This document shows positions 23,802-32,363 of a stretch of 64,000 nucleotides of DNA, piece by piece (the stretch's first letter is position 1; the number at the start of each line of letters is the position of its first letter). The notes below the pieces were generated by a model. It did not search any database and was not told the DNA's origin. It saw only the letters and a list, made by a program, of their open reading frames with translations. Made by a program: the position numbers and the translations under genes. Source of the DNA: Escherichia coli (GTDB lineage Bacteria; Pseudomonadota; Gammaproteobacteria; Enterobacterales; Enterobacteriaceae); the NCBI RefSeq assembly GCF_024223415.1, contig NZ_CP100500.1, one strand, 5' to 3'.

Positions 23802-26501
23802 ATGCGTAAATATCCTTTAAGTTTACTGAAGGATAAAAATATTGTGACTTTCTTTGATTTCTGGGGAAAAACCCGACGCGACGAGAAAGAAGGGGGTGAC
23901 GACTATCACCTTCTTTGCTGGCATTCGCTGGATGTGGCCGCGATGGGCTATTTAATGGTTAAAAGAAATTGCTTCGGGCTGGCTGATTATTTCCGTCAAT
24001 TAGGGATTTCTGACAAGGAACAGGCGGCTCAATTTTTCGCCTGGTTGTTGTGCTGGCACGATATTGGAAAATTTGCCCGCTCATTTCAGCAACTTTACCT
24101 GCACCCACAACTCAAGGTTCCGGAAGGCGCAAGAAAGAATTACGAAAAGATCTCTCATTCAACGCTGGGCTACTGGCTGTGGCATCATTATTTAAGTGAA
24201 TGCGAAGAATTGCTTCCTGCCTCTTCACTCTCTACTCGCAAACTTAAACGTGTAATAGCGATGTGGATGCCCATGACTACCGGGCATCATGGTCGCCCGC
24301 CTGACCGTATTGATGAACTGGATAATTTTCTGCCTGAAGACAAAGCTGCCGCGCGAGATTTTCTCCTTGAAATCAAGCCACTGTTTCCGCAGCTAGAGAT
24401 CCCCGCATTCTGGGATGATGACGAGGGCGTTGAACTTATAAAACAACTTTCCTGGTATATCTCTGCAACCGTCGTACTTGCAGACTGGACAGGATCGTCA
24501 ACGCGATTTTTTCCACGCGTCGCACAGACAATGGATATTGAAGATTACTGGCAAAAGGCTTTAGTTCAGGCTCAAAACGCATTAACCGTCTTTCCTCCAA
24601 AAGCAGAAACCGCGCCTTTCACCGGAATTAATACGCTGTTTCCTTTTATTGAGAATCCGAAACCGTTACAGCAAAAGGTGCTGGATCTGGATATCAGCCA
24701 GCCAGGACCGCAGTTATTTATTCTGGAGGATGTAACCGGCGCAGGTAAAACAGAAGCGGCGCTTATCCTGGCACACAGGTTGATGGCTGCGGGTAAAGCT
24801 CAGGGTTTGTTTTTTGGCCTGCCAACAATGGCAACGGCCAATGCCATGTACGATCGGCTGGTCAAAACCTGGCTTTCTTTCTATTCGCCAGAATCCCGCC
24901 CCAGCCTGGTGCTGGCACACAGTGCCCGCACATTAATGGACCGCTTTAATGAATCACTCTGGTCCGGTGATTTAGTCGGGTCAGAAGAACCGGATGAACA
25001 AACGTTCAGTCAGGGATGTGCGGCCTGGTTTGCCGACAGTAACAAGAAGGCGTTGCTGGCTGAAATTGGCGTCGGCAAGCTGGATCAGGCGATGATGGCA
25101 GTGATGCCGTTTAAACATAATAATCTGCGGCTTCTGGGGTTGAGTAACAAAATCCTGCTGGCTGATGAGATCCACGCCTGTGACGCTTACATGTCGTACA
25201 TTCTTGAAGGGTTGATTGAGCGACAGGTGCGTGGCGGAAACAGCGTCATTTTGCTTTCTGCTACGTTATCTCAACAGCAGCGCGACAAACTTGTCGCCGC
25301 CTTTGCGCGTGGCACAGAGGGCCAGCAAGAAGCTCCGTTCCTGGAAAAGGATGATTACCCCTGGCTGACGCATGTCACGAAATCCGATGTGCATTCGCAC
25401 CGGGTAGCGACGCGCAAAGACGTTGAGCGTAGCGTGAGCGTGGGTTGGCTTCATAGCGAACAAGAATGTATTGCGCGTATCGAATCAGCGGTAAGTCAGG
25501 GGAAATGCATCGCCTGGATCCGGAATTCTGTCGATGACGCTATTAAGGTTTATCGTCAGTTACTTGCCCGCGGCGTCATTCCTGCTTCCAGCCTTTCACT
25601 TTTTCATAGCCGCTTTGCTTTTAGCGATCGCCAGCGAATTGAAACGGAAACGCTGGCACGCTTTGGTAAAAATTGTAGTTTAAAAAGATCATCTCAAGTC
25701 ATTGTTTGTACACAAGTAATTGAGCAAAGTGTGGATATTGACCTGGACGAAATGATCTCCGACCTGGCCCCCATTGATTTGCTGATCCAGCGAGCGGGGC
25801 GATTACAACGGCATATTCGCGATATTAATGGTCAGTTAAAGCGTGATGGAAAAGACGAGCGTTCCCCTCCTGAATTGCTGATTCTGGCCCCCGTCTGGGA
25901 CGACGCTCCTGGTGACGAATGGTTCGGCAGTGCCATGCGTAACAGTGCATATGTCTACCCGGATCATGGGCGAATCTGGCTGACCCAGCGTGTGCTGCGT
26001 GAGCAAGGCGTTATTCAGATGCCACACTCAGCCCGCCTTCTTATTGAATCAGTCTACGGTGAGGACGTGGTAATGCCGGACGGATTTGCCCGCAGCGAGC
26101 AGGAGCAAGTGGGCAAATATTACTGCGATCGCTCAATGGCTAAAAAGTTTGTGCTGAACTTCAGGCCCGGCTATGCCGCCAATATCAACGATTACCTTCC
26201 GGAAAAGCTGTCGACACGTCTGGCTGAGGAATCTGTTTCCCTGTGGCTGGCTAGCTGTATTAACGGCGTGGTGAAGCCTTATGCCAGCGGTGCTCACGCA
26301 TGGGAAATGAGCGTTGTCAGAGTGCGCCGAAGCTGGTGGAAAAAACATCGGGATGAGTTTTCTTTACTGGAAGGGGAAGTGTTAAGGCAGTGGTGCATTG
26401 AACAGCGGCAAGATCCGGAGATGGCAAACGTGATTTTAGTCACCGATGACGAAAGTTGCGGGTATTCGGCTACGGAAGGATTGATTGGCAAGGTTGATTG
26501 A
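23802..26501 (+). CDS. cas3: Cas3 helicase-nuclease (HD domain + SF2 helicase), type I-E
   Basis: 899-aa ORF; HD motif region (HSLDVAAMG...WHDIGK), Walker A (GAGKT) and DEAD-like (ADEIH) motifs; start ambiguous (ATG 23802 vs in-frame GTG 23844). Confidence 0.93.
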   Translation: MRKYPLSLLKDKNIVTFFDFWGKTRRDEKEGGDDYHLLCWHSLDVAAMGYLMVKRNCFGLADYFRQLGISDKEQAAQFFAWLLCWHDIGKFARSFQQLYLHPQLKVPEGARKNYEKISHSTLGYWLWHHYLSECEELLPASSLSTRKLKRVIAMWMPMTTGHHGRPPDRIDELDNFLPEDKAAARDFLLEIKPLFPQLEIPAFWDDDEGVELIKQLSWYISATVVLADWTGSSTRFFPRVAQTMDIEDYWQKALVQAQNALTVFPPKAETAPFTGINTLFPFIENPKPLQQKVLDLDISQPGPQLFILEDVTGAGKTEAALILAHRLMAAGKAQGLFFGLPTMATANAMYDRLVKTWLSFYSPESRPSLVLAHSARTLMDRFNESLWSGDLVGSEEPDEQTFSQGCAAWFADSNKKALLAEIGVGKLDQAMMAVMPFKHNNLRLLGLSNKILLADEIHACDAYMSYILEGLIERQVRGGNSVILLSATLSQQQRDKLVAAFARGTEGQQEAPFLEKDDYPWLTHVTKSDVHSHRVATRKDVERSVSVGWLHSEQECIARIESAVSQGKCIAWIRNSVDDAIKVYRQLLARGVIPASSLSLFHSRFAFSDRQRIETETLARFGKNCSLKRSSQVIVCTQVIEQSVDIDLDEMISDLAPIDLLIQRAGRLQRHIRDINGQLKRDGKDERSPPELLILAPVWDDAPGDEWFGSAMRNSAYVYPDHGRIWLTQRVLREQGVIQMPHSARLLIESVYGEDVVMPDGFARSEQEQVGKYYCDRSMAKKFVLNFRPGYAANINDYLPEKLSTRLAEESVSLWLASCINGVVKPYASGAHAWEMSVVRVRRSWWKKHRDEFSLLEGEVLRQWCIEQRQDPEMANVILVTDDESCGYSATEGLIGKVD

Positions 26502-26598
26502 GATGTCTGCGACAGGACTCTCTGAATAGTTGATATACAGAAAAGGATGGAAAGATGGACAACCGACCTGGGATGGTCTTTTTTACGAGAGGATGCGT

Positions 26599-31153: not shown

Positions 31154-32073
31154 CGTTTGTACCACTGAGTCCGATCCCGTTAAAAGATCGCACCTCTATG
31201 ATCTTCCTCCAGTACGGTCAAATCGACGTACTGGACGGCGCTTTCGTGCTGATCGACAAAACCGGGATCCGCACGCACATTCCGGTGGGATCGGTCGCCT
31301 GCATTATGCTCGAACCGGGAACGAGAGTTTCCCACGCGGCGGTGCATCTGGCCGCCACGGTGGGAACACTGCTGGTCTGGGTCGGTGAAGCGGGCGTTCG
31401 CGTTTACTCTTCCGGACAACCCGGAGGGGCGCGGGCAGATAAATTACTCTACCAGGCAAAGCTGGCTTTAACGGAAGATCTACGCCTGAAGGTGGTGCGC
31501 AAAATGTATGAATTACGTTTTCGTGAGCCACCGCCAGCTCGCCGTTCAGTGGATCAGCTACGGGGAATTGAGGGATCCCGCGTTCGCCAGACCTATGCAT
31601 TACTGGCGAAACAATATGGTGTGAAATGGAATGGTCGCAAATACGATCCTAAAGACTGGGAAAAAGGCGATGTTGTGAATCGCTGCATCAGTGCTGCCAC
31701 ATCATGTCTGTACGGTATTTCTGAAGCGGCAGTATTAGCCGCGGGATATGCGCCCGCTATTGGATTTATTCATAGTGGCAAACCGCTTTCATTTGTTTAT
31801 GACATAGCCGATATCATTAAATTTGATTCGGTTGTGCCAAAGGCATTTGAAATAGCGGCAAGACACCCGGCAGAATCTGATAAAGAAGTCAGATTAGCCT
31901 GTCGCGATATTTTCCGTAGCACTAAGTTAACGGGCAAATTAATACCGTTAATTGAGGAAGTCCTTGCTGCAGGTGAAATTGAACCACCACAACCCGCGCC
32001 GGATATGTTACCGCCTGCCATCCCTGAACCTGAAACGCTGGGTGATAGTGGTCACCGGGGGCGCGGCGGATGA
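31150..32073 (+). CDS. cas1: Cas1 integrase (GTG start overlapping casE stop)
   Basis: 307-aa ORF; highly similar to K-12 Cas1 as recalled ([39 protein letters not shown]). Confidence 0.95.
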
Positions 32074-32363
32074 GCATGGTCGTGGTTGTTACAGAAAATG
32101 TCCCTCCGCGCTTACGTGGACGGCTCGCAATCTGGCTACTGGAAGTGCGTGCCGGTGTGTATGTTGGTGATACATCAAAACGTATTCGGGAGATGATCTG
32201 GCAACAAATTACCCAACTGGCTGGTTGCGGAAATGTGGTGATGGCCTGGGCGACCAATACCGAGTCGGGTTTTGAATTTCAGACCTGGGGAGAAAACAGA
32301 CGTATTCCGGTGGATTTGGATGGGTTACGTTTGGTTTCTTTTCTTCCTGTTGATAATCAATAG
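32070..32363 (+). CDS. cas2: Cas2
   Basis: 97-aa ORF overlapping cas1 stop; [33 protein letters not shown] matches Cas2. Confidence 0.95.

Follow-up and report, generated by a model that had tools for sequence, protein, structure and literature searches.

A type I-E CRISPR-Cas locus of the E1 variant in Escherichia coli and the probable two-layered origin of its step in similarity to K-12 at casE/cas1

Why should the Cas1 and Cas2 proteins of an Escherichia coli type I-E system closely resemble those of strain K-12 MG1655 when all other Cas proteins of the same operon differ strongly from their K-12 counterparts? [quoted passage not shown] An earlier sequence-only reading answered it by a mosaic, in which a divergent cas3-Cascade block was joined to K-12-like cas1-cas2 by recombination near the casE/cas1 junction. 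Our analysis leads to a different answer. The locus is the majority E1 variant of E. coli, also known as O157:H7-type, cas-EO or var. B-8552. It is very probably a complete and apparently intact type I-E locus whose step in similarity to K-12 has two layers. On the E. coli scale, E1 and the K-12 type (E2) would represent alternative whole cassettes, swapped as a unit between conserved flanks, and cas1-cas2 would lie inside the cassette, anciently diverged from the K-12 genes. In deeper history, effector cassettes (cas3 to cas6e) from widely separated lineages would have been repeatedly replaced beside a retained or slowly evolving cas1-cas2-CRISPR block with conserved Cas1e and Cas2e.

Pairwise alignment bore out the strong divergence of the effector proteins from K-12. 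Amino acid identity is 29% for Cas3, 23% for CasA, 32% for CasC, 37% for CasD and 30% for CasE. CasB reaches about 27% in a forced global alignment, and K-12 CasB gives no blastp match to CasB of the window. At position 31150, i.e. at casE/cas1, protein identity rises sharply from about 30% to 84-86% (Cas1 83.6%, Cas2 86.2%). Identity to K-12 is thus not uniform across the operon (23-37% versus 84-86%), and blastn similarity to K-12 starts 12 bp into cas1. At the DNA level, however, cas1 and cas2 are only 70.4% and 74.1% identical to the K-12 genes, with saturated synonymous differences of 0.82 and 0.71, respectively. The description of cas1-cas2 as K-12-like therefore holds for the proteins and fails for the genes. 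Between window and K-12, nonsynonymous divergence (dN) is 0.73-1.10 in effector genes and 0.13 in both cas1 and cas2, with saturation of synonymous sites in every one of these genes. The flanking CysI, CysH, Iap, CysD and CysN proteins are 99.3-99.8% identical to those of K-12, with synonymous divergence (dS) of 0.04-0.16. Third-position identity to K-12 amounts to 30-52% in every 40-codon window of cas1 and cas2, and no recently exchanged or higher-identity tract was found in either gene at this resolution. Megablast detected no K-12 match within cas3-cas2, cas1-cas2 included. An E2 cas1-cas2 allele, as judged from DNA, is thus not what is joined to the E1 effectors here.

The block differing from K-12 does not end at casE/cas1. 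Its constituents and their closest neighbours are arranged in the window as follows:

23315-23472, plus strand: hok/sok regulatory RNA (Rfam sok, RF01794, 110 bits against a gathering score of 59); the K-12 counterpart is annotated sokX
23457-23609, plus strand: hok toxin gene, intact, 50 amino acids (Pfam HOK_GEF, E = 5.7e-10)
23802-26501, plus strand: cas3 (HD nuclease and helicase), E1 variant, 899 amino acids (NCBIfam cas3_core 221 bits and cas3_HD 90 bits, both above cut-off)
26599-28161, plus strand: casA/cse1/cas8e, large Cascade subunit, 520 amino acids (TIGR02547, 609 bits)
28158-28694, plus strand: casB/cse2/cas11, small Cascade subunit, 178 amino acids (TIGR02548, 102 bits)
28709-29764, plus strand: casC/cas7e, Cascade backbone subunit, 351 amino acids (TIGR01869, 446 bits)
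29775-30521, plus strand: casD/cas5e, 248 amino acids (TIGR01868, 159 bits)
30503-31153, plus strand: casE/cas6e, pre-crRNA (precursor CRISPR RNA) endonuclease, 216 amino acids (TIGR01907, 289 bits); overlaps the cas1 start by 4 bp
31150-32073, plus strand: cas1e, integrase of the adaptation module, 307 amino acids, GTG start (TIGR03638, 379 bits)
32070-32363, plus strand: cas2e, 97 amino acids (TIGR01873, 134 bits)
32364-32459, plus strand: CRISPR leader, AT-rich, 96 bp (sequence read directly)
32460-33281, plus strand: CRISPR array, 14 repeats of 29 bp and 13 spacers of 32 bp (repeat search and direct reading)
33282-33342, plus strand: last spacer (33282-33313) and degenerate terminal repeat (33314-33342), both common to K-12

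On the left side, identity to K-12 is 93-99% from cysH through sok up to the hok ATG (23457-23459) and then stops. Of this hok/sok locus, which is situated between cysH and cas3, K-12 has just sok and the ATG of hok; the start codon of hok is thus the exact left boundary of the E1/E2 cassette. On the right side, near-identity to K-12 resumes at the last full repeat (33253), and the last spacer matches K-12 at 31 of 32 bases. In addition to hok, the eight cas genes and the leader, the cassette (23460 to about 33252, approximately 9.8 kb) hence takes in almost all of the array, and cas1-cas2 lie inside it. These limits do not support a mosaic with its breakpoint at casE/cas1, nor do the cas1-cas2 DNA identity of 70-74% to K-12 and the common relatives of both modules (see below).

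The operon as such satisfies the definition of type I-E. The signature genes cse1 (cas8e) and cse2 (cas11) are present together with cas7e, cas5e, cas6e, cas3, cas1e and cas2e, and their order is that of I-E operons (cas3-cse1-cse2-cas7-cas5-cas6e-cas1-cas2, then leader and array). All eight proteins score above curated NCBIfam type I-E cut-offs with full-length matches, and all open reading frames (ORFs) are intact. In the ORF list, cas genes extend from 23802 (cas3 start) to 32363 (cas2 stop), as had been read from the sequence before. The same is true for Cse2, with 178 amino acids beginning MSIVKEEHKATLRKW, and for Cas6e, which begins MYLSRITLHTGQLSP at 30503. Start codons of casA (26599) and casE (30503) were adopted from the annotation of E. 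coli SCU-316, the operon of which is 100% identical to that of the window; the sole difference is one 61-bp repeat-spacer unit in the array. The repeat, GTGTTCCCCGCGCCAGCGGGGATAAACCG, is the canonical I-E repeat and differs from the K-12 repeat in one base at position 2 (GTG... vs GAG...), which may be the position designated A/T in the literature, where 'type A' repeats and leader-A go with E1. It occurs in 14 copies with 61-bp period at 32460-33281 (none expected by chance).

That divergent I-E cas variants exist in E. coli, as the sequence-only reading had pointed out, is established in the literature. Two variants of cas-E, named E1 and E2, were described by Almendros et al. 2014 (PMC3903273). 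Most common is E1 (53.5% GC), which occurs in O157:H7, Salmonella and E. albertii; E2 (45.6% GC) occurs in K-12, mostly in phylogroup A, and in E. fergusonii. The same work describes replacement of the whole cas set, and its cas1-cas2-cas3 tree still separates E1 from E2. With the cassette of O157:H7, and not with that of K-12, the locus of the window aligns at high DNA identity. In 300-bp windows it is 83-100% identical in DNA to O157:H7 F3113. It occupies the same cysH-hok-cas-CRISPR-iap site, with the same gene order, and its gene lengths (2700/1563/537/1056/747/651/924/294 bp) are as given for E1 in a 2025 survey (PMC12736100). Table 1 of that survey lists identities to K-12 of 29% for cas3, 23% for casA, 0 for casB, 31% for cas7, 32% for cas5 and 29% for cas6, along with 84% (DNA 73%) for cas1 and 86% (DNA 75%) for cas2. 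Identities determined here match these published values (cas1 84%, cas2 86%, others 0-32%). Both the E1 variant and its identities to K-12 have thus been published already. As in PMC3903273, the E1 locus groups with E. albertii and Salmonella. Its effector genes do not belong to E2, which we define by at least 90% DNA identity to K-12 and by matches to models PRK09694 and PRK09693: both K-12-type models score below cut-off (Cas3, 422 vs 569 bits; CasA, 103 vs 576 bits).

With K-12 cas-E2 (cas-EK) the locus shares subtype, chromosomal site and gene order, as well as the terminal spacer and degenerate repeat, the latter two being the "anchor" common to E1 and E2 in PMC3903273. Window Cas1 residues corresponding to K-12 Cas1 E141, H208, D218 and D221 are conserved in the alignment. 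In contrast to K-12, hok is intact, effector proteins are only 23-37% identical, and the leader is 69.8% identical to the 105-bp leader of K-12.

We surveyed 5,426 complete E. coli genomes for the two variants. The 10-kb query of E1 type is covered to at least 80% in 2,406 of them, and E2 (K-12-type) effector genes occur in 1,187. The distribution of cas1-cas2 identity to the window has two modes, with 2,732 genomes at 90% or more, 1,221 at 60-80% and none of the 5,426 between 80 and 90%. The casE/cas1 junction was examined using probes from both variants, with about 500 bp on each side. Intact E1-E1 junctions were found in 2,650 genomes and intact E2-E2 junctions in 1,172 (together 3,822 of the same type). 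Mixed-type junctions do not occur among the matches listed, in which partial matches are truncated loci. The presence of two discrete cas1-cas2 classes, together with junctions of the same type, demonstrates that the type of cas1-cas2 is tightly linked to that of the effector genes. The particular allele of the window is rare, since only three complete genomes are at least 99% identical to it over the 10-kb query.

We asked how Cas1-Cas2 and effector genes relate to each other across species. One genome per species was scanned with a Cas1 alignment, which yielded 80 loci, taken with flanks of up to 10 kb; 78 of these, with Cas1-Cas2 remaining 74-100% identical, entered pairwise and tree comparisons. 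Cas1 and Cas2 of the 80 loci are 70-100% identical to both E1 and K-12 proteins, whatever the effector family. Among the hosts are such distant ones as Pectobacterium, Marinomonas, Methylophaga, Shewanella, Halopseudomonas and Parasutterella. Cas1 of the window is 92-98% identical to Cas1 of E. albertii, Salmonella, Klebsiella and Citrobacter and 81-86% to that of Pectobacterium (84%), Marinomonas, Oceanospirillum and Zobellella (83%); it is no closer to K-12 (84%). Effector genes fall into families (E1, 61 loci; E2, 13; others, 4) with about 25-35% identity between them. When locus pairs with 25-40% CasC identity are considered, the median Cas1 identity is 78% (5th-95th percentile, 74-86%), and the E1-E2 pair of E. 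coli is no outlier, being at the 92nd percentile. The resemblance of Cas1 and Cas2 to the K-12 proteins is thus attributable to extreme conservation in the whole family, not to recombination with a K-12-like strain. Very strong purifying selection would act on Cas1e, Cas2e and the repeat across gammaproteobacterial I-E systems.

Pairs with nearly the same Cas1 and unrelated effectors are found even within genera. Marisediminitalea and Alteromonas loci have 100% identical Cas1 and 32% identical CasC. In pairs of the same genus with about 30% CasC identity, Cas1 is 96% identical in Halopseudomonas, 95% in Marinomonas, 95% in Oceanospirillum, 92% in Citrobacter amalonaticus/Citrobacter sp. and 90% in Methylophaga. 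Flanks of such mixed pairs are homologous, and DNA homology restarts at the cas1 start codon, in some cases about 0.8 kb upstream. Repeats follow the host and Cas1 rather than the effector family; the two members of the mixed Citrobacter pair have identical repeats, for instance, as do those of the mixed Marisediminitalea/Alteromonas pair.

Phylogenetic trees of the two modules are incongruent. In the effector tree, E1 and E2 families are each supported by 100%, and in the Cas1+Cas2 tree the same groupings receive 0%. The latter tree joins mixed-effector pairs of the same genus at 99-100% and requires at least 13 switches of effector family. The locus of the window is placed congruently, joining E. 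albertii, Escherichia sp. and Pseudocitrobacter in either tree (100/100) and next the clade of Salmonella, Klebsiella and Citrobacter (97/100). K-12, on the other hand, is incongruent. Its effector genes group with those of Citrobacter amalonaticus (94%), and its Cas1-Cas2 group with three Enterobacteriaceae loci, L021, L028 and L031, which carry effectors of the E1 family (84%). Accordingly, K-12 Cas1 is 90-95% identical to seven loci with E1-family effectors and only 86% identical to that of C. amalonaticus. Composition agrees with the incongruence of K-12, where GC content steps at casE/cas1: effector genes have 43.5-48.1% GC in K-12 against approximately 50-55% in the window, and K-12 cas1 has 51.3%. 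The two modules of the window would therefore share one history, and those of the K-12 cassette would have different relatives. Since the window is congruent and K-12 is not, an exchange at casE/cas1 appears to be real but ancient, and to have taken place on the K-12 lineage. Should one of the two E. coli types be a chimera, it would be that of K-12. The earlier emphasis on the casE/cas1 junction is therefore justified as regards the step in protein similarity; recombination of this strain with a K-12-like one is not indicated, and exchange at this place belongs only to the deep history of the family.

From these patterns we tentatively infer the direction and mechanism of the ancient exchanges, namely effector replacement next to retained cas1-cas2, and the opposite direction has to be weighed against it. 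Effector cassettes might have been stable, with cas1-cas2 and repeats homogenised within the host lineage by gene conversion from co-resident I-E loci or by transfer of only the adaptation module with its array. Cas1-Cas2 and repeats do track host taxonomy, which speaks for such homogenisation. Moreover, in Citrobacter and in K-12/Enterobacteriaceae comparisons cas1-cas2 DNA identity is 71-74%, below that of the flanks (about 80%), so cas1-cas2 were not simply inherited vertically with the flanks. In Oceanospirillum, however, cas1-cas2 (78.0%) and flank (77.8%) are equally diverged, as if they had been inherited together and the effectors replaced between them, which fits effector replacement. 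We consider the opposite direction unlikely. Even less probable is a difference in rate without any exchange of modules, i.e. a single divergence of E1 and E2 as a whole, Cas1 and Cas2 evolving about 6-8 times slower in protein than the effectors. The dN values with saturation of dS in all genes speak for it, as does the unexceptional position of the E1-E2 pair, and seen from the window alone it fully explains the contrast between E1 and E2. But the clade of E2 effectors that it predicts in the Cas1-Cas2 tree is the one with 0% bootstrap support, same-genus pairs with different effector families are firmly joined, and K-12 Cas1 is closer to seven E1-effector loci than to its closest E2 effector relative. 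Finally, a crossover near casE/cas1 of recent date on the scale of E. coli diversification retains practically no probability in spite of the sharp protein step and the blastn match from the beginning of cas1, as saturated dS beside flanks with dS of 0.04-0.16 already refutes it, and neither a higher-identity tract in cas1 or cas2 nor a genome with intermediate cas1-cas2 identity was found, junctions are of the same type in 3,822 genomes, and Cas1-Cas2 and effector genes of the window share their nearest relatives.

Several points weigh against the two-layered explanation. Counts of the population survey leave room for another arrangement, such as rare mixed-type hybrids, in at most about 39 of 3,953 genomes. 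The 80 loci were chosen by Cas1 similarity, and the Cas1 plateau of about 78% is therefore partly an effect of ascertainment; for this reason, it was rejected as sole proof of rate differences, and tree incongruence was used instead. Trees were constructed by neighbour-joining on Kimura distances with 100 bootstraps, not by maximum likelihood, and key nodes are moderately supported (K-12 with L021, 65%; the four-taxon clade, 84%). As to activity, type I-E systems of E. coli are often transcriptionally silent.

Repeated switching of effectors beside a conserved adaptation module and repeat within type I-E is an instance of known module shuffling, in which adaptation and effector modules evolve semi-independently (Koonin & Makarova 2019, PMC6452270). 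The likeness consists in the incongruence of Cas1-Cas2 and effector trees across 78 I-E loci. The difference is that switching occurs here within one subtype, repeatedly at casE/cas1 and with the repeat kept, often at the same chromosomal site in sister species. In the literature searched, no description of this effector-swap pattern across the I-E family was found, only general module shuffling and papers specific to E. coli. A more general view can be put forward tentatively, and we hold it to be possible rather than probable. In gammaproteobacterial I-E systems, cas3-cas6e might be a swappable unit, replaced in place by divergent effectors while cas1-cas2, leader, repeat and array are kept, with E1/E2 of E. 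coli as one local instance. Recombination might be anchored in the upstream flank and in the conserved 5' end of cas1. If this is true, a lineage could change its interference machinery, e.g. to escape anti-CRISPRs binding Cas7 or Cas8, and keep its immune memory. Loci with near-identical Cas1-Cas2 and repeats and effectors of about 30% identity would, if confirmed by better phylogenetics, constitute a natural module-swap set. Such natural swaps could become a tool for studying co-evolution of Cascade and Cas1-Cas2 in primed adaptation, and effector switching driven by anti-CRISPRs.

For practical purposes, the locus should be annotated as a common E1 (non-K-12) type I-E system. It is presumably functional. 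Cas6e would cut the array transcript, and Cse1, Cse2, Cas7, Cas5 and Cas6e would assemble with crRNA into Cascade. This complex would recruit Cas3, resulting in degradation of matching DNA, and Cas1-Cas2 would insert new spacers at the leader end. The sequence-only reading had suggested that a divergent Cascade may differ in preference for the protospacer adjacent motif (PAM) or in anti-CRISPR susceptibility. A functional difference between variants is indeed on record for spacer acquisition: the motif is CTT for K-12 and CWT for O157:H7, each with its own Cas1-Cas2, and acquisition by Cas1-Cas2 of the O157:H7 variant was demonstrated experimentally (Diez-Villasenor et al. 2013, PMC3737337). 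An anti-CRISPR census preprint (PMC12248084) contains nothing on E1 versus E2 sensitivity. Results obtained with K-12 on PAM and acquisition motif, on regulation from the cas3-casA spacer and on anti-CRISPR sensitivity are not to be transferred to E1 untested.

A mosaic does exist in this operon, but of another kind than was proposed. Within the E1 family, the allele of the window combines stretches of different E1 alleles, the patchwork being located in cas3, casA and casB. Along cas3-casB its nearest relative changes between O103, Escherichia sp., E. albertii and O157. Identity to O103:H2 (300-bp windows) decreases to 70-82% across casA (26808-27857), and a block in casB (28002-28601) is 94-97% identical to E. 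albertii/Escherichia sp. versus 84-91% to O157/O103. From casD to cas2 the window is closest to O157 (97-100%), with cas1-cas2 98-100% identical to O157:H7. The patchwork agrees with recombination within E1 Cascade genes reported in PMC3903273.

Third-position GC of cas1 in the window drops from 65% (codons 1-100) to 43% and then to 35%. An internal breakpoint was considered as the cause of this fall and rejected, because most relatives, including Salmonella, Klebsiella and Citrobacter, share the gradient; it is a feature of the family, not a crossover.

The spacer between cas3 and casA (26502-26598) is 97 bp long in the window versus 414 bp in K-12. The K-12 intergenic region holds a regulated Cascade promoter, so operon control may differ in the E1 variant.

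In 13 of the 78 I-E loci, all outside Enterobacteriaceae, casE and cas1 are separated by 600-1200 bp (L061, L042, L053, L055, L062, L064, L066, L075-L078, L082 and L085). The only gap gene examined is that of L061, which lies at 9177-9998 and encodes a 273-amino-acid protein with a KilA-N domain. Homology between L060 and L061 restarts at 9176, at the start of this gene. In the pairs L060/L061 and L076/L077, the casE-cas1 stretch belongs to the conserved cas1-cas2 block and not to the swapped effector block.

Six Enterobacteriaceae loci (L021, L026, L027, L028, L029 and L031), when compared with L001, have their I-E locus at the cysH/cysD site of E. coli, and the flanks share about 80% identity with K-12. 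At this site, other Enterobacteriaceae carry effectors of no fewer than three lineages, namely E1, E2 and a distant E1-like group (45-58% identity). Two further loci, L006 and L080, come from short contigs of Bacillota and Collinsella metagenome bins, and their Cas proteins are mostly 94-99% identical to those of the window (L080 CasB, 87%). With Cas1 99% identical to the window, they might be taken as evidence of transfer; this was rejected, and they were treated as probable E. coli contamination.

In the window, the region from cysI to cysN (20672-36989) is ordered cysI, cysH, hok/sok, cas3-casA-casB-casC-casD-casE-cas1-cas2, leader, CRISPR array, iap (minus strand), cysD and cysN, and the orientation of its cysH-iap part is opposite to that in the K-12 record. 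The counterpart of hok is annotated Hok/Gef in SCU-316, O157:H7 and O103:H2.

Within the array, one 32-bp spacer is present twice in tandem (32672-32703 is the same as 32733-32764), as a perfect 61-bp duplication; SCU-316 has one unit fewer. Roughly 17 kb upstream of cas3, at 6061-6760 of the window, there is a second CRISPR array with 12 repeats, in which both GAG... (K-12-like) and GTG... (window-like) repeats occur, several of them with additional point changes.

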